From an uncultured Chloroflexia bacterium (GTDB lineage Bacteria > Chloroflexota > Limnocylindria > Limnocylindrales > CSP1-4), in contig CAWEIJ010000002.1 of assembly GCA_963809215.1 (NCBI GenBank), positions 2,019,220-2,083,219 of the forward strand: DNA of 64,000 nt, written 5' to 3'. Position 1 is the first letter of the stretch. Each line of letters begins with the position of its first letter. The translations under genes and the position numbers were made by a program. Below, one piece after another: positions 13,197-53,334 of the stretch. Below the pieces are notes generated by a model. The model saw only the letters and a program-made list of their open reading frames with translations. It was not told where the DNA came from and searched no databases.

Positions 13197-13484
13197 ATGA
13201 TCGAGCGCCACATCACCTTCTCGGTCCTCCCCGACAGGACCGCCGCGTTCGAGCAGTTCATCGCCAGCGAGTACGGGCCGACCATGGCCAGGGCTCCGGG
13301 CTTCGTGAGGATCGAGCTGCTTCGCGAGGCAGACAGCCCGACCCGCTACCAGATGGTCTTCCGCTTCGTGGATGCCGCGAGCGCCGCCGCCTGGCGGACC
13401 TCGGAAGTCCACCAGGCCCTGCAGCCGGCGCTGCGGGAGCTTCACTCGGACATGCAGGTCCAGGGCTACGAGGTGGTCGCCTGA
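13197..13484 (+). CDS. antibiotic biosynthesis monooxygenase (ABM/Dabb) family protein
   Basis: 95-aa ferredoxin-like ABM pattern (HITFSVLPDRTAAFEQF...). Confidence 0.7.
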   Translation: MIERHITFSVLPDRTAAFEQFIASEYGPTMARAPGFVRIELLREADSPTRYQMVFRFVDAASAAAWRTSEVHQALQPALRELHSDMQVQGYEVVA

Positions 13485-13527
13485 GGGGGCCGGGGATCAC
13501 CGGCGGCGGCACGAGCGAGGGAACGCC

Positions 13528-33985: not shown

Positions 33986-34001
33986 CGTCATGACCCCCCG
34001 T

Positions 34002-37000
34002 TCAGGGCCCGGGCGTGAAGCTGACGTTGTCGAAGGTGGCGGTCCCGAGCTTGGTGTTGACGTGCGAGCATTCCTCGAGCCCGAGGGTCGCCGCCGTCGG
34101 GATCGTGGCGAGGCTGGTCGAGGCGACCTGGGTCCAGGCGACGCCGTCAGACGACAGGAAGGCCGTGAACGACGAGCCGGAGCGGACCATCTTCATCCAG
34201 ACGTTGGGGAACGCGTAGGTCGTCGAGGCCTGGACCGAGCTGCTGAACTTCCACTGGACCTTGACGACGCCGCTGTTGTTGACCGCGATCAGGAAGTAGG
34301 GCGAGCCCGAGGACGTCGAGGCCTTCCAGATGAGCCCGGCCTTGCTGTTGGAGCTGCCGGTGTTCGTCTGGCTCGTCACCCGGGCGATGAGCGTGCCGTT
34401 GCCCGACACCGGCTGGTAGACGTAGTGGAACTGGTCGTACGTGCCGTAGATGTCGGCCCCTGAGCCGCTGACGGTGAAGACGCCGCCGGCGTAGGTCGCC
34501 GAGCCCGCGACCGCGGGAGACCCGATGTCGGCGTCGGTCCAGGGCGACGGCAGGCCGCCACCCGTGCTGGCCGTGACGGTCAGGCTGACGCTGGTCGTGT
34601 GGGTGGCCGAGGGCGCCGTGCCGGTGACCGTCAGCGGGTAGGTGCCGGGCGTGACGCCCGAGCCCACGGTGAGGGTCAGGGCCGAGCCTGCGCCGGCGGT
34701 GACGCTCGCCGGGCTGAAGCCGGCCGTCACCCCCGCCGGCAGGCCCGAGGCCGCCAGGCTGATGCTCTCGGCGCTGCCCGAGACGAGGGCGGTGCTGATG
34801 GTGCTGCCGCCGGCGGCACCCTGCACGACCGAGACGCTCGAGGGGCTGGCGCTCATCGAGAAGTCGTTGGTCACCGGAGCCGTGACGGTCAGGCTGACGC
34901 TGGTCGTGTGGGTGGCCGAGGGCGCCGTGCCGGTGACCGTCAGCGGGTAGGTCCCGGGCGTGACGCCCGAGCCCACGGTGAGGGTCAGGGCCGAGCCTGC
35001 GCCGGCGGTGACGCTCGCCGGGCTGAAGCCGGCCGTCACCCCCGCCGGCAGGCCCGAGGCCGCCAGGCTGATGCTCTCGGCGCTGCCCGAGACGAGGGCG
35101 GTGCTGATGGTGCTGCCGCCGGCGGCACCCTGCACGACCGAGACGCTCGAGGGGCTGGCGCTCATCGAGAAGTCGTTGGTCACCGGAGCCGTGACGGTCA
35201 GGCTGACGCTGGTCGTGTGGGTGGCCGAGGGCGCCGTGCCGGTGACCGTCAGCGGGTAGGTGCCGGGCGTGACGCCCGAGCCCACGGTGAGGGTCAGGGC
35301 CGAGCCTGCGCCGGCCGTGACGCTCGCCGGGCTGAAGCCGGCCGTCACCCCCGCCGGCAGGCCCGAGGCCGCCAGGCTGATGCTCTCGGCGCTGCCCGAG
35401 ACGAGGGCGGTGCTGATGGTGCTGCCGCCGGCGGCACCCTGCACGACCGAGACGCTCGAGGGGCTGGCGCTCATCGAGAAGTTGTTGGGCGGCGGGGAGC
35501 TGCTGGTGACCGTCAGCTTCACGGTCACGCTGTGCGTGGCCGAAGCCGACGTCCCCGTCACCGTGATGGAGTAGCTCGCGGCCGGGACCGCGGCCCCGAC
35601 CGAGAACGTCAGCGTCGAGCTCCCGCCGGTGGTCACCGACGCCGGGCTGAAGGCGGCAGTGACGCCCGCCGGCAGGCCGGTCGCGCTGAGCGTGATCGAT
35701 TCCGCGCTGCCCGAGATCAGGCCCGTCCCGATCGTCGTCTGGCCCGCCGCGCCGGCGGCAACGCTCAGCGAGGATGGCTTCGCCGTGACCGTGAAGTTGT
35801 TCGGTGGGGGCGGCGCGGCGGTCGGCAGGCTCACCGATCCGAAGGTCGCCGTGCCCAGGGCCGTGGTGCTATGGGAGGTCACCGCCATCCCGGCGAGGAC
35901 CGTCCCCGAGACCCCCAGGACCTGGCTCGAGCCGGCGACCGGCGTCCAGCTCACCCCGTCCGGCGAGGTGTACGCGGTGACGATGCTCCCCGACCGCAGC
36001 ACGGAGACGTAGGCCGGGACCGTTCCGGCGATGTTGGCGATGGTCACCACGTTGGCGTTCGTGGTGGGCCGCTGGAGCACGAACAGGCCCGCGCCAGGGG
36101 TGACCACGAGGGCATAGAACGGCGCGCCCGCATCCGTGCTCTGGCGGAGCATCACGCCGGCCCTCGCCCGGCTGTTCGTGTTCGTCTGGGTCAGGACGCG
36201 GGCATTCGCGCCGCCGTCCGCGGCGAGCGGCTGCCAGACGAGGTGGAGCTGGTCCGCCGTCCCGCCGATGTCGCGCCCGGAGCCGGAGATCGTCCAGGTG
36301 CCGTTGCTCAGCGAGTCGCTGCCCGCGACCGGCGGGGATCCGATGTCGACGCCGGTCCATCCGTTGGTCGACGTCCCCCAGGTCACGCTCGCCTGGTTCG
36401 ACCTGAAGCTGCCGACGGTCGTGACGCTCGCCACGACGATGTCGGTGCCCGAGACGCTGCTGCCGTAGGTGAAGGACGCGTGCCCGGTCGCGTCGGTCAC
36501 CGCGCTCCCGGTGACGCCCGCGTTCGGGCCGACGATGATCGTGAAGCCGACGGTGACGTTCGGGACGACGGCGCCGCCGCCATCCTGGAGGAGCGCCGTC
36601 TCGGTGACCTGGCCACCGACTGGCTGCGAGGCCGACGCCGGGCCGAGGGTGAGAGTCGCGGTGTCCGATCCCGCCGCGCCGATGGCACGCCACTGGATCG
36701 ACTCGTTCTGGCCGCAGTAGCCGCGGTCGATGCCGCCGGTGTCGAGGACATGGGTGCTGTCGACGAGCGTCGTGGGGACGCCGGCGATGGTGATGGTCAC
36801 CGTCGGCGCGACCGTGACCGGCGTGCAGATGTTGCCCGGGTAGCCGCTCGTGTCGAAGTTGTCGGAGCCCGGGTTGTTCGTGGGCGGGTTCTCGGTGAGG
36901 ATGACGCTCTTGCCCGCCGGGACCGTGAACGAGCCCCAGAGGCTGAACGCCTTGCCGCCCGGGACGGACGAGTGGATGTCGGCCGAGACGCTGCTGACCG

Positions 37001-37343
37001 TGACGTCGGCGGTTCCCGGGTTGTCGAGGCGGATCGCCCCGGCGTCATAGCAGGTGGTGAGGGTTCCGCATGCCGTCTGGCCCGGGACGGTGCCGCCCAG
37101 GAAGGTCGTGTTCGGAGCGCCGACCCAGGGAACCGGGAAGGCCGCCGGGTTCGGGTTGTTCGTCTCCTTGTCCTCGGCGTAGCCGACGGAGACGTTGAGG
37201 CCGCCTGCGCTCGAACCGGCGGCGATGGTCGCTCCGAGCAGGCCCTGGGGCGCGACGGCGACCGACGATCCGAACGCGGTCGCCGTCGCGAACACCAGGG
37301 CAAGGCCCGAGCGGACCCCCCGCTTCCAGCTCGATGCCTTCAT
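34002..37343 (-). CDS. giant secreted repeat protein (~1113 aa): signal peptide, Big_1-like Ig domain, lectin-like ~150-aa domain, 5 Ig-like 103-aa repeats, C-terminal lectin-like domain
   Basis: Start MKASSWKRGVRSGLALVFATATAFGSSVAVA with GGGGGG SD. Internal near-identical repeats. It is the lower part of ORF 34002..38720. Confidence 0.75.
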   Translation of the reverse strand: MKASSWKRGVRSGLALVFATATAFGSSVAVAPQGLLGATIAAGSSAGGLNVSVGYAEDKETNNPNPAAFPVPWVGAPNTTFLGGTVPGQTACGTLTTCYDAGAIRLDNPGTADVTVSSVSADIHSSVPGGKAFSLWGSFTVPAGKSVILTENPPTNNPGSDNFDTSGYPGNICTPVTVAPTVTITIAGVPTTLVDSTHVLDTGGIDRGYCGQNESIQWRAIGAAGSDTATLTLGPASASQPVGGQVTETALLQDGGGAVVPNVTVGFTIIVGPNAGVTGSAVTDATGHASFTYGSSVSGTDIVVASVTTVGSFRSNQASVTWGTSTNGWTGVDIGSPPVAGSDSLSNGTWTISGSGRDIGGTADQLHLVWQPLAADGGANARVLTQTNTNSRARAGVMLRQSTDAGAPFYALVVTPGAGLFVLQRPTTNANVVTIANIAGTVPAYVSVLRSGSIVTAYTSPDGVSWTPVAGSSQVLGVSGTVLAGMAVTSHSTTALGTATFGSVSLPTAAPPPPNNFTVTAKPSSLSVAAGAAGQTTIGTGLISGSAESITLSATGLPAGVTAAFSPASVTTGGSSTLTFSVGAAVPAASYSITVTGTSASATHSVTVKLTVTSSSPPPNNFSMSASPSSVSVVQGAAGGSTISTALVSGSAESISLAASGLPAGVTAGFSPASVTAGAGSALTLTVGSGVTPGTYPLTVTGTAPSATHTTSVSLTVTAPVTNDFSMSASPSSVSVVQGAAGGSTISTALVSGSAESISLAASGLPAGVTAGFSPASVTAGAGSALTLTVGSGVTPGTYPLTVTGTAPSATHTTSVSLTVTAPVTNDFSMSASPSSVSVVQGAAGGSTISTALVSGSAESISLAASGLPAGVTAGFSPASVTAGAGSALTLTVGSGVTPGTYPLTVTGTAPSATHTTSVSLTVTASTGGGLPSPWTDADIGSPAVAGSATYAGGVFTVSGSGADIYGTYDQFHYVYQPVSGNGTLIARVTSQTNTGSSNSKAGLIWKASTSSGSPYFLIAVNNSGVVKVQWKFSSSVQASTTYAFPNVWMKMVRSGSSFTAFLSSDGVAWTQVASTSLATIPTAATLGLEECSHVNTKLGTATFDNVSFTPGP
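34600..35530. repeat. 3 tandem, essentially identical 309-bp coding repeats (Ig-like domain units). The same unit recurs at ~38000-38620 in the neighbouring gene.
   Basis: Opposite-strand ORFs at 34642, 34960 and 35260 translate to identical 102-aa peptides; the period is 309 bp. Confidence 0.85.
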
Positions 37344-37399
37344 GACGTGAGCCCCCCGTGTGTTGCGGATGGTGTGGGACGCGTGGCCTGACGTCCCTG

Positions 37400-40300
37400 T
37401 CAGGGCTGGGTGATGGTGACGGTGTCGAAGGTGGCGCTGCCGAGGACGTTCGCGTTGTGGCTCGTGACGGCCATCCCGGCGAGGACGGTCGTGGGCATGG
37501 CGGTGATGGTCTGGGACGTGCCCGCGATGAACGTGAAGGTGACGCCGTCGGAGCTCGTGTAGGCGCTGAAGGTGTTGCCCGAGCGGGCGATCCGCAGGTA
37601 GAGCGGCGGGACGCCGGCGACCTTCGTGGCCTGGGAGGTGGTGCCGCCCTGGGTCGTCCGCCACTGGGTGGCGACGCCCTTGGTGGTGGTCATGAGGACG
37701 GCGTAGTAGGGCGCGGCCGGGTCGCTGCTCGCGCGCAACATGATGCCGGCCTTGGCGCTCGACGAGGTGTTGGTCTGCGAGGTGATCCGGACCGTCAGGG
37801 TCGAGTTGCCGGTCAGGGCTCTGGGAGACGAAGTTGAACTGGTCCGAGGCGTTGAAGATGTCGGCCCCTGAGCCGCTGACGGTGAACACGCCGCCGGCGT
37901 AGGTCGCCGAGCCCGCGACCGCGGGAGACCCGATGTCGGCGTCGGTCCAGGGCGACGGCAGGCCGCCACCCGTGCTGGCCGTGACGGTCAGGCTGACGCT
38001 GGTCGTGTGGGTGGCCGAGGTCGCCGTGCCGGTGACCGTCAGGGGGTAGGTCCCGGGCGTGACGCCCGAGCCCACGGTGAGGGTCAGGGCCGAGCCTGCG
38101 CCGGCCGTGACGCTCGCCGGGCTGAAGCCGGCCGTCACCCCCGCCGGCAGGCCCGAGGCCGCCAGGCTGATGCTCTCGGCGCTGCCCGAGACGAGGGCGG
38201 TGCTGATGGTGCTGCCGCCGGCGGCACCCTGGACGACCGAGACGCTCGAGGGGCTGGCGCTCATCGAGAAGTTGTTGGGCGGCGGAGCCGTGACGGTCAG
38301 GCTGACGCTGGTCGTGTGGGTGGCCGAGGGCGCCGTGCCGGTGACCGTCAGCGGGTAGGTGCCGGGCGTGACGCCCGAGCCCACGGTGAGGGTCAGGGCC
38401 GAGCCTGCGCCGGCGGTGACGCTCGCCGGGCTGAAGCCGGCCGTCACCCCCGCCGGCAGGCCCGAGGCCGCCAGGCTGATGCTCTCGGCGCTGCCCGAGA
38501 CGAGGGCGGTGCTGATGGTGCTGCCGCCGGCGGCACCCTGCACGACCGAGACGCTCGAGGGGCTGGCGCTCATCGAGAAGTCGTTGGGCGGCGGGGAGCT
38601 GCCCGGCACGCTGACGTTGTCGAAGGTCGCCGTGCCGAGCGCGCTCGTCTTGTGCGATGTCACGGCTAGGCCCGCGAGCATCGCCCCGGTCACCCCCGGG
38701 CTCGCGCTCGAGCCGGGCACGGCCGTCCAGGTGGCGCCGTCGCTCGAGGTGAACGCCGTGAACTTCGTGCCCGATCGCGTGATCCTGGAGGTAGATCGGG
38801 AGCGTGGCCGCGACCTTCGAGCTCTGCGAGGTCGTGACCCCCTGGCTGTTGCGCCACTGGACGACGACGCCGCTTCCGGGCGTGTAGAGCGCTGAATAGT
38901 AGGGAGAGCCCGGGTCGGTGGTCGCGCGCATCATCACGCCCGACTTGGCCGAGGAGCTCGTGTTCGTCTGGGTGACGAGCCGGGCGCTCACGTGCCGTCC
39001 GAGCTCGTCGAGACGGATGCGAAGTTGAACTGGTCGCTCGTGCCGTAGATGTCGGCGCCGGCGCCGATGACCGTGAAGGTGGGGCTCGTGTAGCCGCCCG
39101 ATCCGGTGATCGCGGGCGCGCCGATGTCCTGGTCGGTCCAGCCGGTGGGCAGGGGTCCGAGCGGCGGGGTCGTCGACGCCCACGACCTGGACGTGATCGA
39201 ACGCGACGGTGCTGTACTGGCCGATGTTGTGGGCCGTGTCGAAGAGCCCGATCGTGACCGGGCCCGTCATGGCCAGCGTGACGACGCCGATCTGCGTCCA
39301 GTTGACGCCGTCCGCGGAGATCGACGAGACGAACGTGTTGCCCGACCGCTGCAGCTGCACCCACTTGTTCGGCGAGGCGAAGCCGGTCGGGTAGGTCTTT
39401 GGTGTCACCCCGCCCGGGCCCGTGTACTGCATGCGCGCGCCGTTGCCCATCGCCGGCGTCACGGGCGGCAGCGGGCTGATGCAGCCGTTCGCGTCGCAGG
39501 CCACGCCGTTGATGTTCGGCGTGTTCGGGCTGACGTCGGGCGCCACGAGCGCGTCGACGAAGGCCGTGCCGGCCGCCGTGGACTGCGCGACCATGACGCC
39601 GGCCTTCGCCCAGGAGCTCGAGTTCGACTGGTAGCGGACCCGGGCGGTGATCGTCCCGTCGCCGGTCAGGGCCTGGTAGACGTAGTGGAACTGCTCGTTG
39701 GCGCCGTAGACATCCGAGCCCGAGCCGTCGACGTAGAACGTCCCGCTGCTCGCCGCGTAGTCGGCCGCGCCGACGGTGATCGGGGCGCCGACGTCGACGC
39801 TCTGCCACGACGAGGGCATCGTCGATGTCACCGGCTCGTAGTTGGCCGTGTAGGACCCCGGACCGGACCCGGCGGTGAACGTGTCGGTGAGCGTGCTGCC
39901 GTCCGCGAAGCCGGCGAACCGGTACCGGCTCCCGCCGATCGCCTGGACGAGCGGCATCCCGGCGATCACGTGCTGGACGCCGACGACGTCGGTCGTGCTG
40001 AAGGGGCCCGTGACCCACTGGCCGTCGATCGCGTAGCCCGCCCCGGCCACGTTCGCGCTCGCCGTCCAGGTGGTGGTGTTGGGATGGAGATCCTGGGTCA
40101 CGACGGTCTGGAGGCCGAGCGAGTCGGTGACGGTCAGCGTGATCCGATAGAAGCTCGTCGGCGTCTGGGACGGGTCCGTCGGGACCTGGAAGCTGCCGGA
40201 GGTGACGCCCGTCACGGGTCCGTAGAACGGGGATGCCACCTCGGCGGAGAAGGACGGCTGCGCAACGCCGTTGGCGTAGAAGTCGACCTTCCAGGAGTAG

Positions 40301-42285
40301 GCGCTCGGCGGCTCGGCGCCGTCGACCGCGTCCGTCGCGGTCCCGCTGAAGGCGACGGCCTGCCCGGCGTTGTAGGTCGCCGGCGCGCTGATCGCCACGA
40401 TGGGAGGCGAGGCCCCCACGGTGACCTGGGTGGTCGCCGTCCCCACCTGTGACCCGTTGCTCACCGTGAGCGTGGCGGTGTAGGTCCCGGCGCTCGCATA
40501 CGTGTGCGACGGGTTGGCAGCCGTCGAGAGCCCCGAGCCGTCACCGAAGTTCCAGGAGTAGCTGAGCGGCAGCCCGTAGGGGTCGGTCGAGCCGGCCGAC
40601 GAGAACTGGACCGGTAGCGGTGCCGGCCCCGCGTTCGGCGTCGCCGACGCCGTGGCAGTCGGGGCGAACGGCCCCGGAGCGGAGATCCGGTAGATCGAGC
40701 CGCTGAAGATGCTCGCGTAGTAGAGGTTCCCGTCGGGCCCCTCCTCCAGGTCCGCGATGGTCCCGACGGCGCTGTCGAAGACGGTGTCGGAGACGACGGT
40801 CCGGTACGTCGGGTCGAACGTCACCGCGTCGATCGACAGCTGGTTGTAGTCGCCGACGAAGACGACGTTGGCGTACTGCCGAGGGAACGTCGTCCCCGTG
40901 TAGGCCGCCACGGCCGAGGCCGCGCCGTCGACCGGGTAGTGGCCGTAGGCGTAGACCGGATTGATGCCGCCGCAGCTCCCGCAGTTGCCCTCGACGAAGT
41001 CCCAGCCGTAGTTGCCCCCGGGCTGGATCGTGTCGAGCTCCTCCCAGTAGCTCGAGCCCGTGTCCTCCGTCATCGGCTGGCCCGTCGGCAGGAACGACCA
41101 GCGGAACGGGTTGCGCAGCCCGTAGGCATAGATGTACGGGATTGCGTTGGGCACGTTCAGGAACGGGTTGTCGCTCGGGACCGACCCGTCGAGGTTGAAG
41201 CGCAGCATCTTGCCGTAGATGTTCGTGAGGGTCTGCGCGTTCGTGATCGACGGGACGTTGTCGCCGACGCTCCACCAGAGCTTGCCGTCGGGCCCGATCT
41301 TCACCGTCTGGCCGGGGTGGTGCCCGTTCTGGATCTGGTTGCCCTGGTAGTAGACCTTCTCGGTCGTGAGGTCGATCGCGTTGTTCACGACCGTGAACCG
41401 GGACAGCCTCGTGTACGGCTGCGTCCCGGAGCTGTTCGTGACGTTGACGACGTACGAGATGTACACGTAGCCGTTCGTCGCGAAGTTCGGGTCGAGCGCG
41501 AGGCCCAGCAGGCCGCACTCCGTGTTGTAGAAGACGTTGGGGAGCGTCACGAGGGGGGTCGGGAGGACGGCGCCGTTGCGGTAGATCAGGATGACCCCGG
41601 TCTGCTCGCCGACATAGATGTCGCCGTTGGGGGCGAAGGCGAGGAGGATGGGCTTCGTCAGCGATCCGGCGAGCTTCGTCTGCGTGAAGCCGGGCGGAAG
41701 GACCTGGTTGATCGGGGTCGTGACCGTCGCCGACGCGCTGAACGGCGTCGACGACTCGGTCCCGGTGACCGTGGCCGTGTTGGAGAGCGATCCGCCCGCC
41801 GCGGCCGTGACCTGGCCGGTGATCGTGACCGACCAGGACCCCCCGGCGGAGAGCGTCGCTGCGCTGCACGTGACGGTCGGGCTGGCGAAGCTGCAGCTGC
41901 CGGTGCTCGCGGTCATCCACGGCGACGACGGGAAGCTGCCGATGCCGAGGCCGACGAGCGTGTCGGTCAGGCTCAGGCCCGACGCTGCCGCGCCGCCCGT
42001 GTTCGCCACGGTGATCGTGTAGGCGAGCGCCTGGCCGCTGCTGACCGGGTTGGGGGAGGACGTGACGGCGATGGAGACTGCCGGGCCGACGGCCAGGGCC
42101 GGGCTGGTCACGGCGGCGGTCGCCCCGACCAGGGCAAGGATCGCGACCGCGCGCAGCGCGATCCTGCGGACCGGGCCGCGGTGGCCCCGTGCCCGCCCGG
42201 GCGCGCGCCGCGCGTCCGCCCGGCCGCCGTCGTCCCGCCGCCGAAGCAGCGTCATGAGACTCCTGCGGGATCGCCTGGCTTCCAT
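37400..42285 (-). pseudogene. giant secreted protein (~1630 aa if repaired): signal peptide, DUF11 conserved-repeat domain, PQQ-dependent soluble glucose/sorbosone dehydrogenase (GSDH) beta-propeller, 2 PKD domains, lectin-like ~150-aa domains and Ig-like repeats. Reading frame broken by at least 4 single-nt indels (~39165, ~38990, ~38785, ~37820).
   Basis: Protein-like segments are distributed over three frames (ORFs 37813..42423, 34002..38720 upper part, 37400..37969). Each junction is restored by a one-nt shift. RBS GGAGG upstream of the ATG at 42285. Confidence 0.7.
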
Positions 42286-42301
42286 CCTGAACCTCCAACC
42301 A

Positions 42302-42328
42302 GATGAATGGGATGAATTGGATGAGTGC
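42302..42328. repeat. 3 x 9-bp tandem repeat GATGAATGG / GATGAATTG / GATGAGTGC in the 85-bp intergenic spacer immediately upstream of the RBS of the 37400-42285 gene
   Basis: Direct reading; AT-richer than surrounding sequence. Confidence 0.5.
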
Positions 42329-42370
42329 GGCGGGTGGATCAAGGTGCGCGCGCCTCCGGGTTCGGGCGGC

Positions 42371-45300
42371 TCAGGGGCCGGGGACGAGGCCAACGGTGTC
42401 GAACGTGGCGGCGCAGAGCGCACCGGTGTTATGGGACGTCACGGCCATCCCGGCGAGGACGGCGGTGGGCAGGGCGATCGTCTGGGAGCTGCCCGGGACG
42501 AGCGTCCAGTTGACGCCGTCGGTGCTCGTGTAGGCAGTGAACGTGTTGACCAGGCGCGCGATGCGCAGGTAGAGCGGCGGGACGCCGGCGACCTTCGACG
42601 TCTGCGAGGTGGATCCCCCCTGGGCCGTGCGCCACTGGACCACGACGCCCTTGGTCGTGGTCATGAGGATCGCGTAATACGGCGAGCCCGAGGCACTCGA
42701 GGCTCGGAACATCAGGCCTGCCTTTGCGCTCGGATTGGTGTTCGTCTGGCTGGCCACGCGGGCGCTGAGGGTCCCGTTGCCGGTGAGGGCCTGGCTGACG
42801 AAGTTGAACTGGTCGGCGGTGGCGTAGATGTCGGCCCCGGCCCCGTTGACCGTGAAGACGCCGGCGCTGTACGTGGCCGAGCCGGCGAGGGCAGGAGCCC
42901 CGATGTCGGCGTCGGTCCAGGGCACCGGCAGCGGCGGCGGGGGCGCGGTGACCGTCAGGCTGACCGTGGTCGCGTGGGTCGCCGAGGGGGCGGTCCCGGT
43001 GACGGTCAGGGGATACGTCCCGGTGGGGACGCTGGCGGCGACGGCGAGGCCGAGCGTCGCGCTGCCGCCGGCGCTGACCGAGGTCGGGGTCAGGGTGGCG
43101 GTCACGCCCGCCGGCAGGCCGCTGACCGCGAGGGCGACCGTCTCGGCGCTGCCCGAGATGAGGGCGGTGGTGATGCTCGTCCCGCCCGAGGCGCCCTGGG
43201 CGATCGAGAGGCTCGACGGGCCCGCGGCGATCGAGAAGTCGTTGGGGGTGACCGTGGACAGCCCGACGTTGTCGAAGGTGGCGGCCCCGAGGGCGGTCGC
43301 GGTGTGACACGTGACGGCCAGCCCGGCGAGGACGGCGGCGGGCATGGCGATGGTCAGGCTCGAGCCGGGCACCGCCGTCCAGCTGACCCCGTCGGGGCTG
43401 GTGTAGGCAGTGAAGGTGCTGGCCGAGCGGACGATGCGCAGGTAGACCGGGACGGTGCCCGCGATCTTGACCTGGCCGGTGGTGCCGCCCTGGGCCGTGC
43501 GCCACTGGACGGCGACGCCGTTGGCCGGGGTGGCGAAGACCGCGTAGTTGGGCGCCCCGGGATCGCTCGTGGCGCGCAGCATGAGCCCGGCCTTGGCCCA
43601 GGCGTTCGAGTTGGCCTGGCTGGCCACGCGGGCGCTGAGGGTCCCGTTGCCGGTGAGGGCCTGGCTGACGAAGTTGAACTGGTCGGCGGTGGCGTAGATG
43701 TCGGCCCCGGCCCCGTTGACCGTGAAGACGCCGGCGCTGTACGTGGCCGAGCCGGCGAGGGCAGGAGCCCCGATGTCGGCGTCGGTCCAGGGCACCGGCA
43801 GCGGCGGCGGCGGCGCGGTGACCGTCAGGCTGACCGTGGTCGCGTGGGTCGCCGAGGGGGCGGTCCCGGTGACGGTCAGGGGATACGTCCCGGTGGGGAC
43901 GCTGGCGGCGACGGCGAGGCCGAGCGTCGCGCTGCCGCCGGCGCTGACCGAGGTCGGGGTCAGGGTGGCGGTCACGCCCGCCGGCAGGCCGCTGACCGCG
44001 AGGGCGACCGTCTCGGCGCTGCCCGAGATGAGGGCGGTGGTGATGCTCGTCCCGCCCGAGGCGCCCTGGGCGATCGAGAGGCTCGCCGGGCCCGCGGCGA
44101 TCGAGAAGTCGTTGGGCGTGACCGTCGAGAGGGCGACGCTGTCGAAGGTGGCGGCCCCGAGGGCGGTCGCGTTGTGGGACGTGACGGCCAGCCCGGCGAG
44201 GATGGCGGCGGGCATGCTGATGGTCAGGCTCGAGCCGGGCACCGCGGTCCAGCTGACGTTGTCGGGGCTGGTGTAGGCAGTGAAGGTGCTGGCCGAGCGG
44301 ACGATGCGCAGGTAGACCGGGACGGTGCCCGCGATCTTGACCTGGCCGGTGGTGCCGCCCTGGGCCGTGCGCCACTGGACGGCGACGCCGTTGGCCGGGG
44401 TGGCGAAGACCGCGTAGTTGGGCGCCCCGGGATCGCTCGTGGCGCGCAGCATGAGCCCGGCCTTGGCCCAGGCGTTCGAGTTGGCCTGGCTGGCCACGCG
44501 GGCCGTGAGGGTCCCGTTGCCGGTGAGGGCCTGGCTGACGAAGTTGAACTGGTCGGCGGTGGCGTAGATGTCGGCCCCGGCCCCGTTGACGCTGAAGACG
44601 CCGGCGCTGTACGTGGCCGAGCCGGCGAGGGCAGGAGCCCCGATGTCGGCGTCGGTCCAGGGCACCGGCAGCGGCGGCGGCGGCGCGGTGACCGTCAGGC
44701 TGACCGTGGTCGCGTGGGTCGCCGAGGGGGCGGTCCCGGTGACGGTCAGGGGATACGTCCCGGTGGGGACGCTGGCGGCGACGGCGAGGCCGAGCGTCGC
44801 GCTGCCGCCGGCGCTGACCGAGGTCGGGGTCAGGGTGGCGGTCACGCCCGCCGGCAAGCCGCTGACCGCGAGGGCGACCGTCTGGGCGCTGCCCGAGATG
44901 AGGGTCGTGGTGATGCTCGTCCCGCCCGAGGCGCCCTGGGCGATCGAGAGGCTCGCCGGGCCCGCGGCGATCGAGAAGTTGTTGGGCGTGACCGTCGAGA
45001 GGGCGACGCTGTCGAAGGTGGCGGCCCCGAGGGCGGTCGCGTTGTGGGAGGTGACGGCCAGCCCGGCGAGGATGGCGGCGGGCATGCTGATGGCCTGGCT
45101 CGAGCCGGGCACCGCGGTCCAGCTGACGTTGTCGGGGCTCGTGTAGGCAGTGAAGGTGCTGGCCGAGCGGACGATGCGCAGGTAGACCGGGACGGTGCCC
45201 ACGATCTTGACCTGGCCGGTGGTGCCGCCCTGGGCCGTGCGCCACTGGACGGCGACGCCGTTGGCCGGGGTGGCGAAGACCGCGTAGTTGGGCGCCCCGG

Positions 45301-48300
45301 GATCGCTCGTGGCGCGCAGCATGAGCCCGGCCTTGGCCCAGGCGTTCGAGTTGGCCTGGCTGGCCACGCGGGCCGTGAAGGTCCCGTTGCCGGTGAGGGC
45401 CTGGCTGACGAAGTTGAACTGGTCGGCGGTGGCGTAGATGTCGGCCCCGGCCCCGTTGACGCTGAAGACGCCGGCGCTGTACGTGGCCGAGCCGGCGAGG
45501 GCAGGAGCCCCGATGTCGGCGTCGGTCCAGGGCCACGGGACGGGCGAGATCGACACGCTGTCGAACGTCGCCGAGCCGAGGGTCCCCCACGTGTGCGAGG
45601 TCACGGCGAGGCCGGCGAGGACGGGCCCGCTCAGGCCGACGCTCGACGGCGGAGCCCGGCACCGGCGTCCACGAGATCCCGTCCGGCGAGGTGTACGCCG
45701 TCGCTGTCCCGGCCGACATCGAGACGGCGAGATGGACCGGCGGTCCGCCCGCGGCCACGAGCTGCGAGCTGGCGCCGGCGAGCGTCGTCCTCCACTGGAT
45801 CGCGATCCCGTTGCCGGGCGTGACGAACACCGCGTAGTAGGGCGAGCCGGGGTCGATGCTCGACCTGAGCATCACGCCGGCCTTCGCCCACGCTGACGTG
45901 TTGGTCTGCGAGATCGCCCGCGCGACGATCGACCCGTCCGTCGGGAGCGTCTGCCAGGCGAAGTGGAACGCGTCGGCCGTCGACCAGATGTCCCCGCCGC
46001 CGCCCTGGACCGTCCAGGTCCCGGCGGTGAGCGATTGCGCGCCGGTGACGCCCGTCGAGCCGATGTCGGCGCAGGTCCAGCCCGTCGGGCATGCCCCCGG
46101 CGGCGGCCCGGCGTTGCCGAGCGTGACGGTGTCGAAGGTCACCGTGCTGAGCTGGCTCGTGTTGTGGGACGTGACGGCGAGGCCCGCGAGGATCGTCCCG
46201 GTCAGGCCGAGGCTCACGCTCGCGTTGGGAATGGGGGTCCAGTTGAGCCCGTCGCTCGACGTGTACGCCGTGAACGTGCCGTTCGACTGCGCCACCTCGA
46301 GCCACGCGGGGGCGACGCCCGGCGTCGTCACCTGCGAGGACGCCCCACCCTGCGTCGTCCGCCACTGGACCGCGATCCCGTTCGAGGGCGTCACGAACGC
46401 GGCGAAGTAGGGCGAGCCCGGGTCGGACGTCGCCCGCATCATCAGGCCCGCCTTCGCCCAGGAGCTCGTGTTCGTCTGGGTGTCGAGACGGGCGCTGAGC
46501 GCACCGTTGCCGGTCAGCGGCTCGCTCAGGAAGCGGAAGCTGTCGGACGTTCCCCAGATGTCGCCGCCGCCGCCCTGGACGGTCCAGCTGCTGCCAGTGA
46601 CGTACTGCGCTCCGCCCGGGACCGGGAAGCCGATGTCCCCGCAGGTCCAGCCGGTCGGGCAGAGGCTTGGCGGGGGCGCCGCGGACGCCGTGGCGGACAC
46701 GGTGTCCATCGTGTCGGTGGCGAGGGTCGACGCGGAGCCGGAGCTGACCGCCAGGCCGCCGACGACGCCGGTCGTCGGGCCGAACGTCACGCTCGAGCCG
46801 ATGATCGGCGACCACGCGACCCCGTCGGGAGAGGTGAACGCGGTGTACGTCGTCTGCGAGCGGGTGATCTCCAGGTACTGCGGCGGCGTGCCCGCGATGC
46901 TCACCAGCGGCGTCACCCGCATACCTGCCGCGCTTCGGTAGAGGACCTGGACCCCGTTTGCCGGCGTCACGAAGACGCCGTAGGAGAGCGCGCCCGGAGT
47001 CGTCGCGTCGGCCCGGAACTCGAGGCCGGCCTGCGCGCCCGCCGTGTTCTGCTGGGCAGTGACGTGGGCGACGAGCGTCGCGTCACCGGAGAAGGCCTGG
47101 TAGACGTAGTGCAGCTGGTCGGCGTAGCCAGCGTTCCCGATCCCCGCTCCGGAAAGCGACCAGACCCCGCTGCTGAGCGACTGGTTGCCGACCGCTCGCC
47201 GGGTTGCCGATGTCGGTGCACGTCCAGCCGCCGGGACATGGCGATGACGACGGCGGCGGGTTCGGCGGCGCGCCGGGCGGGCCGATCGCGACCGTGTCCA
47301 CGGTCGAGGCCGTGGCCGTTCCGTTCGTGCCGGACGCCGCGGCCAGGCCGACCATCGCCGTGGTCGGCACGACGACGCTCGCCGTGCTGCCGGCGACGAG
47401 CGTGAACGTGGAACCGTCGGGCGACGTCGCCGCCCCGAGCGTGTCCCCGACCCGCTGGATCTCCAGGTAGAACGGCAGCGCGGGCGCGGTGACCTGCACG
47501 CTCTTGACGGCCCCCAGGAAGGCCGTCCGGTACTTCGCGGAGACGGTGCCGGCGCCGTTGTACGTGACGGCGTAGAACGGCGAGCCCGGATCGTTCGCCT
47601 GCCGGACCATGAGCCCGGTCTGCGTTGCGCTCCCCGGTGTGGCCCGTCACCCGGGCCGTGATCTGCGCGTCGCCGGAGACGGCCTGGCTCATGAGACGGA
47701 GCTGGTCGGTCCCGCCGGCGAGACCGAGGCCGGCGCCGCCCGCGGCGATCGACCACGACCCGGCGCGGACGGTCTCGCTGCCCGCGGGCGCGGGGCTGCC
47801 GACGTCCTGGCACGTCCAGCCGGTCGGGCAGCTGGCGTCGACCGGCGGCGTCGTCGGCGTGACGGGGGCGAACGCGAAGACGGTCCCGTCACCGGAGCCC
47901 ATGTAGACCGTGCCGTTCGAGACGCTCGGCGGCGAGTACGTCACTGCGCCCGTCTGGTAGCTCGAGAGGACGTTCCCGGTGGCGGCGTCGAGCACCTCGA
48001 GGTACTTCCCGGCCCCGGCGAAGACCATCCCGTTGTCGTACGCGAGGGCGGGAATGACGGGACTGGCCAGCCCGCGGGCCCAGACGACGTTGCCCGTGCC
48101 GGGGTCGACGGCCCGGACGGCTCCCGGATAGCCGACCCCGTTGATCGTCGTGTTCCCGCCCGCGGCGTAGAGGAGGCCCTGGGCGAACGCCATCGAGGAG
48201 ACGCTGCCGTCCCCGCACGTCGGGCAGATGCCGCTGACGGCCACCTGGTCGTACCAGACCGGCCCCGCGGCGATGTTCGAGCGAAGGAACGCGTAAAGAA

Positions 48301-49381
48301 AGCCGTTCTTGTTGATCCCGGCGACCAGCGCACGCCCGGTCGAGTCGGTGAACAGGATCGGCGAATCCCCCCAGTCGGAATCCGCGTTCATCGTGCTCTG
48401 CGGGATCTGCCACGAGCTCAGGATGGAGAGCGAGGTGGCGTCCAGGGCGACCATCGCCTCCGAGTACGCCTGGGTGCTCTGGTTGAGCGTGCCCGTGGTG
48501 ACGTAGACGATGTTCGTCGCCGGATCGATCGACGGGGTCGTCCAGACGCCGCCGCCGACCTGGCCGCCTGGCACGAGGCTGGCCGTCGCCATCACCGCGT
48601 GGGTCGTCAGGTCGACGCGCAGGAGCTGGCCCTGGACGAGCGGGCAGTCCCCCAGGCTTGCAACGCCGATATACACGGAGTTGCCGTAGATGAGCGGGCT
48701 GGCCCAGTTGTAGTAGCCGTTCGCCGGGTTGCCGATCGGGATCGACCAGAGGACCTGGCCGGTCGCGGCGCTGAGCGCGTACCAGTTGCCGTCGCCCCCG
48801 CCGACGTAGACCGTGCCGTTGGAGACGTTCGCGGTGGACGACACGCCGAGCGCCGGCGGGGAGCACTGGGGCGCGGTCGTCGTGCCGATGAACGTCTTCC
48901 AGATAAGCGCGCCCGTGGACGCGTTGAGCGCGTACTCGTAGCCATCCCACGAGCCCACGTAGGCCACGCCGCCCACGATCGTGGGCGAGGCGGCGATGAC
49001 GCCGCCCGTCTTGTACGTCCAGAGCGGCCGCAGGTTCGGCGCGCCGGCGGCCGAGAGGATCGTCTCGGAGCTCGCGGCCGTGAGCTGCGGGTTCTGCAGG
49101 TACATCGGCCAGTCGACCGCGGGCGACGCCGCGAGCGCCGTCGCCGGAGCTCCGAGCTGCGCGCCCAGGGCGGCGTTGAGCACCAGGACGAGCGCCCCGG
49201 CGACCTTCCAGGCCGCCCTCCGTCGTCCCGTTCCCGCACGCAGACGCGCGCGGTGCGCTCGGATGCCCGTGCCGACTGGCACGCCCACGTTTCGCCGCCC
49301 TCGATCGATTGCATCGGGCGCTGCCGATGGAGCTCCGGATCCGACGGCTGCGCCGCTCGCCGGATCGAAGGGGATAGGCAT
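42371..49381 (-). pseudogene. giant secreted protein (~2330 aa if repaired): signal peptide, PQQ-repeat beta-propeller, multiple CPTGWTCxDIG-prefixed lectin-like ~150-aa domains, 3.3 x 290-aa (Ig-like plus lectin-like) near-identical repeats. Frame broken by at least 3 single-nt indels (~47635, ~47205, ~45648).
   Basis: Protein-like segments lie in ORFs 46967..49549, 47083..47610, 42429..47813 (upper part) and 42371..45604. Junctions are restored by one-nt shifts. Confidence 0.7.
42800..45500. repeat. ~3.1 tandem copies of a near-identical 870-bp coding repeat
   Basis: Opposite-strand ORFs at 42828, 43698, 44568 and 45438 are near-identical and spaced exactly 870 bp. Confidence 0.85.
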
Positions 49382-49996
49382 CGTGGCGCTGGCGCGCCGA
49401 AGCCCCCCAATGCCGCGTGGTCCTGATCGGACCGAGAATGATTGCCTGGCAACGAGGTGGACCATTCGAATGAATGGGACGCTGGCCCGCCATCGCCGCC
49501 GTCGCGGAGTATCGCGCCGACGCAATCGCGCGTCAAGACCGCGTGTCAAGGGTCCAATTGACCCTTTTCAGATGACCCGTGGACTCGTCCCTTCGAGGTC
49601 GCGATGACCGGTCGGTGAGGGCTCCGCGGCGCGCGCGGCCACCGGGAATCCGCCGCACGGGCCGTCCGTACTGGGCCATCCTGCGCCCCGGACGGGCACA
49701 AGACGGCCCCGGACGCCACCGGAGCGCACCGTCGCCCTGACGTGTGGCGGGCCGCCCTAGGAACATCGTGCGGGTTGGCGCCGGCCCAGCGGCTGCCCAA
49801 AGTCTGGTCTTGAAAGCGTCCCGCCACGGGTTGCTCTCGGGTCGCACCAGGTCCTCTGCGTCGAGGTTCTCTCACCTGCCGGGCGGCCATCGAACGGGAG
49901 ACGACGTCAATGTTCTCGAACGTAACCGGTCGGACGGTCGCGCCCGCCGTCCCGGGTCCCGCCGGGCGACGGCCGGCCTTCCAGCGGCCCCGCGGC

Positions 49997-51770
49997 ATGG
50001 CGACGGCGGTTGTCGTGGTAGCCGCCCTGGTTTCCTGGAGCGCCGGCGCGGTGCCGGGACTCGCTGCGACCAACACGAAGCAGGCCGCGACGCTCGCCCA
50101 GGCCGGGGCCTGCCCGACGGGCTGGACGTGCGCCGACATCGGGGCACCGAAGGTCGCGGGCGGCACGAGCCTGGCCGGCGGCGCCTTCACGCTCACCGCG
50201 TCGGGCGCGGACATCTTCGCGTCGTCGGACCAGTTCCAGCTCGCATGGCAGTCGCTCCCGGGTGACGGGTCGATCATCGCGCGGATCACCTCCCAGGCGA
50301 ACACGTCGGTGAGCGCCAAGGCGGGGATCATGCTGCGAGCGTCGACGGATCCCGGATCCCCGTACTACGCCGTCCTCATGACCACCACCAAGGGCGTCGC
50401 GACCCAGTGGCGCAAGACGGCAGGCGCGACCACGTCGCAGGCAACCAAGGTTCCCGGCGTTCCCGCGCGCTGGCTTCGGATCACGCGAAGCGGCAACACC
50501 TTCACCGCGTACACGGGCGCAGACGGCGTGGCGTGGACCCCCGTGGCAGGCTCGGCACAGACGTTCGCCCTCCCGACCGTCGCGCTCGCCGGCCTGGCCG
50601 TCACCAGCCACAACGGCGGCGTTCTCGGCACGGCCACCTTCGACAACGTGACATCGTCCGCCACGCCGACACCGCCGCCGACGCCAGCGCCGACATCCAC
50701 ACCGACGCCGGCCCCAACCGCGACGCCGACGCCGACGCCGACGCCGACCGCCACGCCCAAGCCGACGCCGACGCCCACTCCCGCCCCCACGACGTCGCCG
50801 ACGCCCGCACCGATCGGTTCGTCGCAGTTCGTCGGGCGGAGCGGCACGACGCTGACGCTCGGCGGCGCGCCGTACGTCTTCACTGGCTTCAACATCTACA
50901 ACGCGAACAGTCGCTCGAACTGCGGCGCGACGGCCGGCACGGGCAGCTACCTCGACACGGCCCTCGGCGACATCGGGTCGGCCCACCCCGTCATCCGCGC
51001 GTGGTTCTTCCAGAGCCTGGCGACCAGCAACGGGGTGCGCGACTGGTCCGCCTTCGATCACACCCTCGCGATCGCTGCGGCGCACGGCGTCAAGGTCATC
51101 GCCACCCTTGGCAACCAGTGGACGTCGTGCGAGACCGGCGGCTACAAGTGGGACAGCTGGTACACGGGCGGGTACAGGACCGTCCGTCGATCCCGGCAAC
51201 GTCACGACCTATCGCCAGTGGGTCAGCGACGTGGTCGCCCGCTACAAGGACAACCCGACGATCGCGTTCTGGCAGCTCATCAACGAGTCGGAGATCAAGG
51301 CCGACAACTCCTCGAGCTGTGGCCCGGCGGCGGATCTCTACAACTTCGCGGCTGACGTCTCAGCCCTGGTCCACTCGATCGATGCCAACCACCTCGTCTC
51401 GCTCGGTGAGATGGGCGGCGGCCAGTGCGGCATGCAGGGCTCCGACTACCAGAAGATCCATTCGATCCCGACGATCGACCTCTGCGAGTTCCACGACTAC
51501 GGCCATCCCACCACTGCGCTGCCGACGAACTTCGCGAATGATCTCGCCGCCTGCAGGGCGGACGGCAAGCCGCTCTACATCGGCGAGGCCGGGATCCAGG
51601 TCACCGACGTCGGTAGCACCAGCCTCCGGGCAACGGACCTCTGGAACAAGTGGTCCGCCCAGATGGCGGCGGGCGCCGCGGGGTTCCTGGTCTGGTCCTG
51701 GAATAACAGCCCCGACGGCACGACCTACCAGGTCGGCCCGGGCGATCCGCTCATGAGCATGGCCTGGTAA
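49997..51770 (+). pseudogene. secreted glycoside hydrolase family 5 (clan GH-A, mannanase/cellulase-like) with N-terminal lectin-like ~150-aa domain and Pro/Thr linker; single +1 frameshift near 51176-51182
   Basis: Signal peptide MATAVVVVAALVSWSAGA, then CPTGWTCADIG and the D-domain, then (TP)n linker. Catalytic motifs WQLINESE (acid/base NE) and LYIGEAG (nucleophile). The two halves are in ORFs 49910..51355 and 51108..51770. Confidence 0.75.
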
Positions 51771-51938: not shown

Positions 51939-53306
51939 TCAGCAGGTCCCCGGTGATCCCAGGGCCGGTGCGAGCGGTGCGTGGGAGGTGATCACGCTCC
52001 AGACCGCCGGCGTGGCGGGGCTCACCTCGTACCGGGAGGCTCCAAGCCGGCAACCCAGGTTCCAGAAGACGTAGGCCGCAACGCCGCCGGCCGCTCCGGC
52101 CTGGTAGACGTCGGCGAAGAAGCTGGCACGGCCAGTTGCGAGCCCGTTGTAGATGACGCCCGGCATCGCGGCTCCATCGCCCGATCCCTGGGGCATCCCG
52201 AACTCGCCGTCGAAGAGCGGCTTGTGGATGGATCGCGCGTATGCCGCGATGGCCGGCATCAGGTCGAGGTCATGGCGCGAGTACGTCTTGAACCCGACGA
52301 TGTCGTTGCCGGGCAGTGCGTACAGGGTCTGCCACCAGGGAAGCGCGGGTGTCTCGTCCTCCATGTGGTTGAAGGCACCGAGCGTCACCAGGTGGTTCGG
52401 GTCGCCCGCGTGGACCATCGCGAGGGTCGACCGGTAGAACGTCGTCAGGCGGTCGAGATCGGACGGCGATCGCGGCGCGGTCGGCTCGCCAACGATGTAG
52501 TAGAACGCGATCCCGGGCTCCTTCGCGTAGCGCGCCGTGGCGAAGGCGATGAACGGGCGCCACGCCTCCGGGTCGAACGGGTCGCGACCCTGGCTGACCA
52601 GCACCCAGCGCATGGCCGAGAGGTCCATCACGACGAACATGTGCCGCGCGCGGGCAGCCTGGACCAGGTAGTCGAGGTTCTGCCAGACGACGGGATCCGC
52701 CCAGTCCTGGTTGGCCGTGCGGCTGTCCCACTCGTCGGTCGGGCGCACGAGGTTGAGGCCGGCGCGCGCGCCCAGGTCGAGCATTGCGTCGATGTAGCTC
52801 CGGAAGGTCGTCGTGTGCCACGCCGCGGCGCCCCCGATGATCCCCGGGTACATCGTGAACCCGGACAGCGGCACAGGCCGCGACCGACAGGTGAACCGCC
52901 TGCCGTCCGTCGCGAGGAAGCTCCCGGCTCCGGCCGCCAGGCCGGCGAGGCACGGCGCTTCGGCCGCTCCGGTCGTGGCTCGAGAGCCGGCCGAGGCAAG
53001 CGTGGCGGCGATGGGCGCCTGCGTCCCGATCGCGAGCGCGGACGCTGCCGCGGCGGGCCCCGGGCTCGCGGCCGCGGGCTCGTCCGCCGTGGCCAGCGGC
53101 ACCTGCGTGCCGTTCGCGGGCGCCTCCGTCGCGGCAGGTGGCGCCTGGGTCGCCGGTGCCGGGGGAGCGGTCAGGCTCGCCGGGGTCGTCGTGGCGGACG
53201 GCTGCGTCGCCGCGACCAATGGCGGCGCCGACGAGCACGCGGCAACCGCGGAGACGACCAGCACGGACAGCAGGCGGACACGCCAGCCAGTCCCGTGACC
53301 TGTCAT
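51939..53306 (-). CDS. clan GH-A (GH5-like) glycoside hydrolase lipoprotein with Ala/Pro-rich linker
   Basis: Lipobox LLSVLVVSAVAACSS; (beta/alpha)8 pattern with a GEFG nucleophile-like motif. Confidence 0.65.
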   Translation of the reverse strand: MTGHGTGWRVRLLSVLVVSAVAACSSAPPLVAATQPSATTTPASLTAPPAPATQAPPAATEAPANGTQVPLATADEPAAASPGPAAAASALAIGTQAPIAATLASAGSRATTGAAEAPCLAGLAAGAGSFLATDGRRFTCRSRPVPLSGFTMYPGIIGGAAAWHTTTFRSYIDAMLDLGARAGLNLVRPTDEWDSRTANQDWADPVVWQNLDYLVQAARARHMFVVMDLSAMRWVLVSQGRDPFDPEAWRPFIAFATARYAKEPGIAFYYIVGEPTAPRSPSDLDRLTTFYRSTLAMVHAGDPNHLVTLGAFNHMEDETPALPWWQTLYALPGNDIVGFKTYSRHDLDLMPAIAAYARSIHKPLFDGEFGMPQGSGDGAAMPGVIYNGLATGRASFFADVYQAGAAGGVAAYVFWNLGCRLGASRYEVSPATPAVWSVITSHAPLAPALGSPGTC

Positions 53307-53334
53307 CGTCCGTGCGCGCTCCCGTCGTGGCCCG

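Follow-up and report, generated by a model that had tools for sequence, protein, structure and literature searches.

Domain repeats in three adjacent secreted-protein genes of an uncultured Chloroflexota bacterium, probably homogenised by recombination within and between genes

Introduction

How do domain repeats that lie in separate genes come to be near-identical in DNA sequence, synonymous sites included? The question is raised by three tandem minus-strand genes, here called g1, g2 and g3, in a stretch of 64,000 nucleotides from contig CAWEIJ010000002.1 of an uncultured Chloroflexia bacterium (assembly GCA_963809215.1). We refer to the whole stretch as the window and give all positions in its coordinates. 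An initial annotation, made from the sequence alone, described tandem coding repeats of 309 bp and 870 bp in this region and compared the locus to adhesin and antigen-variation loci. Our analysis indicates that the repeats encode predicted folded domains of secreted modular proteins and that recombination has probably homogenised them, both by changes of array length inside genes and by conversion from g2 to g1. The phenomenon is ordinary and well known; the host and the type of domain are new.

Results

Repeat arrays in three modular genes

The window has a G+C content of ~72%. From 34 to 49.4 kb the coding strand is the minus strand, on which G+C at third codon positions (GC3) is 0.94-0.99 in one phase at a time. 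The gene that the initial annotation had drawn at g1 is correct: the open reading frame (ORF) is intact and matches database protein P0001 at 100%. The single ORF proposed for g2 is wrong as assembled, since the frame changes four times. The 870-bp array placed at 42800-45500 exists and sits in a third gene, g3 (42371 to ~49381), whose frame changes three times. The label of giant genes thus needs qualifying: g1 is intact, and g2 and g3 are interrupted by single-base indels (Table 1). The plus-strand ORFs noted at 34642, 34960, 35260, 38059 and 38359 are present; they are shadow ORFs of the minus-strand genes, because GC3 marks the minus strand as coding.

We mapped the modules of the locus by tblastn with one query per module type. 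Two types recur, a DUF1349/ConA-like jelly roll of ~180 aa and an immunoglobulin-like (Ig) spacer domain of ~103 aa, with up to eight ConA-like modules per protein. From the N-terminus, g1 encodes a signal peptide, a Cys-containing beta-sandwich head with a Big_1-like Ig domain, a ConA-like module, one diverged Ig domain, three near-identical Ig domains and a C-terminal ConA-like module. The order in g2 is DUF11, glucose/sorbosone dehydrogenase (GSDH), PKD, an atypical ConA module, a ConA module, two Ig units and a ConA module. In g3 a pyrroloquinoline quinone (PQQ)-like beta-propeller is followed by four distinct ConA modules, three ConA+Ig units and a C-terminal ConA module. The g1 product is rich in Ser (14.5%), Thr (14.1%), Ala (13.1%) and Gly (12.6%). 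GC skew on the plus strand is sustained and positive at 34000-46000 (0.09-0.15 against ~0 elsewhere) because the coding strand of these Ser/Thr/Ala/Gly/Val-rich proteins is C-rich.

The arrays announced by the initial annotation were recovered by independent means. Tandem Repeats Finder reported a 309-bp period with 3.0 copies at 34570-35488 in g1 (99% matches) and with 2.0 copies at 37978-38594 in g2 (98% matches). The period limit of this program is 500 bp, and the 870-bp period of g3 was seen instead through copies spaced 870 bp apart. It comprises ~3.2 copies at 42750-45538, counting a partial fourth unit, where 3.1 had been annotated. A dot-plot of the locus against itself had also been proposed; run as a self-BLAST of the whole window, it reproduced the repeats (98.4% over 625 bp for 34879-35503 against 37978-38602, and 94% over 2299 bp inside the 870-bp array) and found no further near-identical copies beyond these arrays. 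Aligned in register, the five 309-bp units differ pairwise at 1-9 of 309 nt. The second and third units of g1 (g1_u2 and g1_u3) are 1 nt apart, and the first unit of g1 (g1_u1) is 2 nt from the first unit of g2 (g2_u1) and 7 nt from g1_u2. The differences between these units are consistent, and four of the five within the Ig core are at third codon positions. Both unit types thus form tandem arrays of highly similar domains, for which the structure model described below predicts an all-beta fold.

Differences among the 870-bp units are spread evenly across codon positions, with more non-synonymous than synonymous codons. We set aside relaxed or diversifying selection as a reading of this spread, given the few differences, a GC3 of ~97% and possible consensus error.

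Exchange between paralogues

The closest loci in the species-representative genome set belong to metagenome-assembled genomes (MAGs) of Chloroflexota ('Chloroflexia', Ktedonobacterales) and Dormibacteraeota from soils and fens, and the best locus in the Genome Taxonomy Database (GTDB) representative set is 66-68% identical. The closest relative that we compared is L018 (MAG MFD02134). In the g2 head it shares 87.6% of protein residues, 88.7% of DNA positions and 78% of third codon positions with the window.

Against this 78%, the tract shared by g1 and g2 inside the window is 97.5-99% identical. Its edges are sharp. At the 3' edge (34447/37855) identity falls from ~99% to ~58% within a few nt of a gapped alignment; at the 5' edge (35503/38602) the flanks are non-homologous, the g1 side being an Ig unit and the g2 side a ConA module. 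A discrete tract with abrupt boundaries inside diverged genes is the footprint expected of gene conversion.

Comparison with L018 gave the relationships among units. The near-identical units of g1 and g2 in the window are 98-100% identical among themselves and 82-86% identical to the g2 units of L018, which is the orthologous level; paralogues within the window are therefore closer than orthologues between genomes, as in concerted evolution. The same units are only 77-80% identical to the extra g1 units of L018. Those extra units are in turn 88-95% identical to the g3 units of L018 and only 79-89% to its g2 units. We infer that the array position of g1 was filled from g2 in the window and from g3 in L018. 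The direction of transfer in the window would be from g2 to g1; g2 is the probable donor because its units are as close to the g2 units of L018 (84-86%) as orthologues are.

Phylogenetic incompatibility is seen both in this difference of donor paralogue and among the five 309-bp units, where seven pairs of informative sites show all four gametes; the sites are few (seven) and polishing artefacts could mimic such mosaicism. In the more distant species L001 (MAG MFD01476), the orthologues of g2 and g1 are 99.9% identical over their final 896 bp (10635-11530 against 13041-13936). That tract takes in an Ig domain and a complete ConA module and ends a few nt past the stop codon. It is an independent homogenisation of g1 and g2, with boundaries unlike those in the window.

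The initial annotation had read identity at synonymous sites as recent duplication or continuing exchange between paralogues. The tract identity, its abrupt edges, the four-gamete conflicts, the change of donor and the L001 tract bear this out, and the comparisons support both processes acting together.

Copy number in relatives

The order g3-g2-g1 is kept in L001, L003, L004, L009, L014 and L018. The common architecture of g3 in relatives is a PQQ propeller, five ConA modules, one Ig and one ConA (~1710-1735 aa); that of g2 is a GSDH head, ConA, Ig and ConA (~1210-1250 aa); and that of g1 is a head, ConA, 0-1 Ig and ConA (~794-811 aa). All three genes have full-length orthologues among the short-read MAGs, and the corrected g3 protein (2335 aa) is collinear with orthologues of 1720 aa.

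Among the relatives compared, expanded arrays occur only in the window and L018. ConA+Ig units in g3 number three in the window, four in L018 and one in most other syntenic relatives. The g2 gene has two Ig units in the window and three in L018, and g1 has four in both and 0-1 in other orthologues. Depending on the species, g3 thus has 1, 3 or 4 units and the Ig units of g1 number 0-4, with the caveat that short-read variants are possibly collapsed. These comparisons place the ancestral state, as far as the sequences indicate, at one unit per gene.

Two g1 orthologues of ~90% identity come from one short-read sample (P0002 and P0121, SRR5664280 assembly). The former has two Ig units and the latter a single one, which is a hybrid of the diverged and repeat-type units. 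These variants are either real products of unequal crossing-over or short-read assembly collapse.

Table 1. Positions and strands of the genes, repeat units, shared tracts, frame breaks and neighbouring genes in the window
Feature	Position	Strand	Description
g1	34002-37343	-	Intact, 1113 aa, secreted; supported by ORF and GC3 phase, P0001 match, Pfam DUF1349/Big_1 and tblastn module map
g2	37400-42285	-	Broken by four single-base indels; corrected to a stop-free ORF of 1627 aa
g3	42371-49381	-	Start not fixed (49246-49381); three single-base insertions; corrected to a stop-free ORF of 2335 aa
Three tandem 309-bp units of g1 (u3, u2, u1)	34570-35496	-	1-7 nt apart; each is one 103-aa Ig-like domain
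Diverged 'native' Ig unit of g1	35497-35805	-	64-69% identical to the near-identical units, 83% to the L018 orthologue
Two tandem 309-bp Ig units of g2 (u2, u1)	37978-38595	-	2-9 nt from the g1 units
Three full 870-bp units of g3	42929-45538	-	ConA-like module plus Ig-like domain; 96.0-98.5% identical
Partial fourth 870-bp unit	42750-42928	-	The opening ~60 codons of the C-terminal ConA module match the units exactly in protein; the sequence then diverges
g1 copy of the shared tract	34448-35503	-	Covers the linker, the three Ig units and the opening ~40 codons of the C-terminal ConA module; gapped alignments
g2 copy of the shared tract	37856-38602	-	747 bp; probable donor
g3 break 1	47632	-	GGGG run with one G too many; located to within a few nt
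g3 break 2	47190	-	One extra base, GGTCGGC context
g3 break 3	45641	-	One base inserted in a GAGCGTC context; the 870-bp array lies ~100 nt further downstream
g2 break 1	39168	-	Extra C in a CCCC run
g2 break 2	38990-38991	-	One missing base, giving an in-frame TGA
g2 break 3	38784	-	Extra G, CAGGATC for CAGATC
g2 break 4	37820	-	One extra base (CAGAGCCC); ~35 nt past the shared tract on its 3' side
ConA-GH5 gene break	~51185	+	One extra base, in the GH5 domain
NdhM-like subunit break	~8160 (gene 7967-8993)	-	+1, GTCGGTCGTC for GTCGTCGTC; as assembled the ORF runs on out of frame to 7770
Divergent ConA-GH5 family member	49910-51770	+	Encodes a signal peptide, a ConA-like module and a cellulase-type GH5 domain; frame interrupted by an extra base near 51185
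GH5/apiosidase-like gene	51939-53363	-	Adjoins the ConA-GH5 gene
Nicotinate-dehydrogenase-like cluster	7967-13006	-	Naturally split large and medium Mo subunits (best Protein Data Bank matches 3hrd_A, 3hrd_B), FAD-binding subunit, CoxG-like protein, GntR/FCD regulator
Cupin gene	7504-8097		With the nicotinate-dehydrogenase-like cluster

Single-base frame breaks

Nine single-base frame breaks were located in the window by a GC3-phase Viterbi track, a strand-aware detector, orthologue-guided tblastn and inspection of each site. Seven lie in g2 and g3 (six insertions and one deletion) and two elsewhere, both +1; eight of the nine are thus +1 insertions. The Viterbi track changes phase without a gene boundary at ~47640, 47180, 45645, 39176, 38999, 38775 and 37810. 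The intact g3 orthologue of the short-read MAG L004 is collinear across the g3 breaks by tblastn, with residues 1-560, 546-688, 691-1210 and 1211-1714 matching in frames -1, -2, -3 and -1. Seven one-base edits restore stop-free ORFs of 2335 aa (g3) and 1627 aa (g2) without a nonsense codon in 3,962 restored codons, and GC3 is still ~0.97 in the shifted frames. Some breaks lie in short runs (GGGG, CCCC, GG) and others in none, most of them outside long homopolymers. Four are in G/C and GTCG-like contexts (CGGTCGG, GCGTCGG, TCCGTCG, TCGGTCG); no motif fits all nine, and the pattern may be chance, the motif being common at 72% GC.

The only break outside ConA-family genes is that in the NdhM-like subunit, just upstream of the conserved GxKGxGE C-terminus (…GPYGVKGLGEMT…LQPRPA-stop). 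A second candidate in this cluster, a frameshift at ~8990 that would split a molybdopterin dehydrogenase large subunit, was rejected because the two ORFs correspond to NdhL and NdhM (3hrd_A, 3hrd_B), two subunits of nicotinate dehydrogenase that are separate by nature. The break at 37820 was considered as a conversion junction and is probably unrelated, as it lies ~35 nt past the tract edge and in the probable donor gene.

We counted breaks at the same locus in related genomes. The Nanopore-only MFD MAGs have ~19 (L018), 7 (L009), 3 (L003) and 3 (L011), and the short-read MAGs L004 and L012 have none. The MFD MAGs are Flye assemblies with one round of Medaka polishing (PMC12313526). The share of breaks within the ConA family is 8 of 9 in the window, ~19 of 20 in L018 and 7 of 9 in L009. 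In L018 (1-15500) the ~19 breaks of the three-gene locus, g1 included, compare with 1 in ~9.5 kb of flank. Some one-base insertions in L018 also recur at the same unit position in several repeat copies, for example at 378 in two copies and at 737 in three. Either the consensus errs systematically in certain contexts, or homogenisation of the repeats has spread the indels.

On balance we lean towards consensus errors of long-read metagenome assembly, and not biology, as the source of the nine breaks. Orthologue alignments that pass uninterrupted over every break, the undiminished GC3, the break in an unrelated conserved enzyme gene and the contrast between Nanopore-only and short-read MAGs favour this reading. 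Pseudogene decay in bacteria shows a deletion bias, and the excess of insertions counts for an artefact because it runs the opposite way. Several points weigh against this interpretation. A 14-kb span of ConA-family genes holds eight of the nine breaks, where ~2 would be expected under a uniform spread, and simple random error predicts otherwise. Most breaks lie away from long homopolymers and also from the near-identical repeats, in which mis-mapping would be expected. The Nanopore or long-read origin of the window's own assembly is deduced from its 2.96-Mb contig and from its relatives. The clustering could possibly come from strain heterogeneity in a locus of variable copy number that confuses the consensus.

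The C-terminal fragment of g3 at 42371-45604 is deposited as a separate protein of 1077 aa (P0019) on the same contig as P0001. The frame breaks have therefore already passed into deposited annotation.

Domain folds and neighbouring genes

A structure model of the 870-bp unit has a mean predicted local distance difference test score (pLDDT) of 85 and is all-beta in two parts. For the ConA part, the best Foldseek matches are the DUF1349 structures 3o12 and 3mep (E 1e-6 to 1e-5, template modelling score (TM) on the target 0.71-0.74), and the predicted fold is the jelly roll of these solved structures. This part further resembles, in fold only, the carbohydrate-binding module CBM66 (4b1m: E 8e-4, TM 0.66, 15% identity) and the jelly rolls of glycoside hydrolase family 43 (GH43) C-terminal domains and GH16. 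The Ig part resembles S-layer SbsC and sialidase linker Ig domains in the fold search. By sequence, Pfam matches the ConA-like modules to DUF1349 and GH43_C2. The DUF1349 profile (PF07081) gives 51.8 bits, summed over modules, for the 1077-aa g3 fragment and 35.2 bits for a three-module piece at 45600-47300, and 20-27 bits for other pieces, which is below the gathering cut-off of 32.4. Searches of the Protein Data Bank (PDB) with the sequences of the ConA+Ig unit and of the g1 head returned nothing significant, and a literature search on the function of DUF1349 gave nothing useful.

The g1 head (36360-37343, residues 1-328) is a conserved domain without a Pfam family. A comparison of 37 homologues shows the motifs YAE-KE, DNFDTS-YP and THVLDTGG-D to be invariant and four Cys to be conserved. 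Its model (pLDDT 73) comprises only tandem beta-sandwiches, then the Big_1-like Ig domain; the fold search found no recognisable enzyme, only matches of intimin/invasin and MG-domain type. The signal peptides predicted for the three proteins indicate secretion only: there is no LPXTG-type motif in g1, g2 or g3, no hydrophobic C-terminal tail in g1 and no other evident anchor.

Next to the locus stands a divergent family member in which a ConA-like module is joined to a glycoside hydrolase family 5 (GH5) domain. This fusion lies beside a GH5/apiosidase-like gene, and the pair therefore suggests a polysaccharide-related secretome island at 34-53 kb. Judging from modelled folds and neighbours, the three genes probably encode secreted glycan-binding or glycan-processing proteins, with the ConA-like modules as carbohydrate-binding domains and the Ig domains as spacers. 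Against this stands that carbohydrate binding is read from the fold alone and that single modules score below the gathering threshold for DUF1349.

Discussion

We propose the following account of the locus. The three tandem genes encode secreted modular proteins with distinct N-terminal heads (a PQQ-type propeller in g3, a GSDH beta-propeller with PKD in g2 and a Cys-containing beta-sandwich in g1). Because their ConA-like and Ig modules are homologous within and between genes, two modes of homologous recombination could operate. Inside a gene, unequal crossing-over or replication slippage would grow and shrink arrays, taking a single ancestral unit to 3.2 x 870 bp in g3 and adding 309-bp units in g1 and g2. 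Non-reciprocal gene conversion between genes 3.4 kb apart would have carried a tract of 0.75-1.06 kb, with Ig units and the start of the next ConA module, from g2 to g1. Such events would be much younger than the split from the closest sequenced relative, hence the identical synonymous sites. We consider it likely that the domain repeats were homogenised by recombination in these two ways. What weighs against this account is that the g2-to-g1 direction depends on one outgroup, L018, which is itself error-rich; that copy numbers and exact identity rest on assembly alone; and that polishing of repeats can homogenise copies or make mosaics, inflating both the identity and the four-gamete signal.

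Taken to its extreme, this last concern would make the whole pattern an assembly or polishing artefact, in which repeat collapse, chimeric joins or mis-assigned reads create or exaggerate the identity, the copy number and the g1/g2 tract. The frame breaks, eight of nine in ConA-family genes, do speak for a locally poor consensus; related long-read MAGs are still more error-rich at this locus, and the hybrid Ig unit of the short-read P0121 is of the type expected from collapse. We nevertheless regard such an artefact as unlikely: L018, assembled independently, has arrays at the same positions (four units in g3, three Ig in g2, four Ig in g1), the few consistent unit differences have been kept, mostly at third codon positions of the Ig core, the arrays of 0.9-2.8 kb are short relative to typical long reads, and the coding sequence aligns well around the tract edges, where g1 shows no junction lesion. 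Real repeats could also stem from a single recent duplication, for example one unequal crossover between g2 and g1, with too little time to diverge and no continuing exchange. The very high identity and the lack of extra units in relatives outside the lineage of the window and L018 would fit, and the sites that argue otherwise are only seven. Such a history is quite unlikely in view of the seven four-gamete incompatibilities among five units, a g1 array position that is g2-like in the window and g3-like in L018, the independent homogenisation in L001 with other boundaries, and the fact that g1_u1 is nearer to g2_u1 than to its own neighbour g1_u2.

The frame breaks admit two further interpretations. 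The genes g2, g3 and ConA-GH5 might be genuine, very recent pseudogenes in a cluster that is being lost, with g1 functional and the repeats neutral relics. This we find possible but doubtful. The concentration of breaks in ConA-family genes beside an intact g1, their distance in most cases from long homopolymers, and the excess of non-synonymous codons and even codon-position spread in the 870-bp units are all as decay would have them; the restored codons, on the other hand, have neither a nonsense mutation nor a loss of GC3, the 8:1 insertion bias is contrary to decay, the ninth break is in an unrelated conserved enzyme gene, and like breaks affect all three genes, g1 too, in Nanopore MAG relatives and none in short-read MAGs. 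If instead the concentration of +1 breaks were real, g2 and g3 could be switched-off reservoirs whose cassettes are converted into g1, so that free-living soil Chloroflexota would vary a secreted glycan-binding protein by cassette exchange; we give this reading very little credence. Its mechanics would be those of pilE/pilS or vlsE, with frameshifted g2 and g3 as silent donors and the Ig/ConA tail of g1, the expressed recipient, being rewritten. That g1 is the sole intact gene, that the inferred direction is g2 to g1 here while the g1 units of L018 look g3-derived, and that the exchanged tracts are sharp-edged would agree with it. Such cassette switching is nonetheless highly improbable, since each of g2 and g3 has a start, a signal peptide and an enzyme-like head of its own, their orthologues in other genomes are uninterrupted over the full length, only two potential donors exist, the frame breaks are probably artefacts, and nothing points to a host or predator as a source of selection.

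Homogenisation by recombination thus remains our preferred reading, and the locus is then a clean natural case of domain-cassette exchange and copy-number change among adjacent paralogues, seen in two related species with a different donor gene in each. A large and still uncharacterised family comes into view as well: secreted proteins with several DUF1349 modules and a PQQ-propeller, GSDH or GH5 partner, whose probable targets are polysaccharides. For annotation the locus carries a warning, as genes of 1.6 and 2.3 thousand codons were fragmented by seven single-base indels. Repeat-rich modular genes may be systematically mis-called in Nanopore-only metagenome assemblies, because frame breaks pile up in the ConA-family genes of several long-read MAGs.

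Among known systems, the likeness to adhesins and antigenic variation that the initial annotation had drawn does not hold. The proteins have enzyme-like heads, ConA-like modules and a GH5 neighbour, with no LPXTG or other wall anchor, full-length orthologues and no silent cassette. Unlike the promoterless, truncated cassettes of the pilE/pilS or vlsE type, g2 and g3 are complete genes with starts, signal peptides, catalytic-type heads and intact orthologues, and the analogy fails for that reason.

Closer are the Periscope proteins (SasG/Aap G5-E, Rib/alpha C, Sgo_0707 SHIRT, Esp, CdrA), in which near-identical DNA repeats of folded domains are thought to drive intragenic recombination and changes in repeat number (PMC8201768). 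Tandem whole beta-sandwich domains and very high DNA identity are common to both. Repeat number may vary here in a similar way, on counts that compare different species and include short-read variants that are possibly collapsed. The three genes differ in lacking an LPXTG wall anchor or terminal stalk geometry, with a ConA-like module after the array. Their arrays are short (2-4 units) and one unit type is a two-domain ConA+Ig pair. The heads are enzyme-like propellers and not host-ligand binders, the host is an uncultured soil and fen lineage of Chloroflexota, and exchange also takes place between adjacent paralogous genes. We do not file the three genes as Periscope members, because the anchoring and stalk features are missing.

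The modules themselves are akin to the DUF1349 (PF07081)/CBM66-type modules found on glycoside hydrolases, by predicted fold (3o12, 3mep, 4b1m), by DUF1349/GH43_C2 Pfam matches and by the GH5 fusion in the window. They differ in number, with up to eight per protein, in their partners, which are PQQ-propeller and GSDH heads in place of classical carbohydrate-active enzyme domains, and in that most single modules score below the Pfam gathering threshold.

Concerted evolution by gene conversion is known for duplicated tuf genes, rRNA operons, PE/PPE and other surface-protein families. The locus shares with these cases paralogues that are closer within a genome than orthologues are between genomes, sharp tracts in diverged genes and incompatible sites. 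What sets it apart is that the converted segment is a domain cassette, that the donor is g2 here and g3 in L018, and that conversion is coupled to a change of copy number in the recipient.

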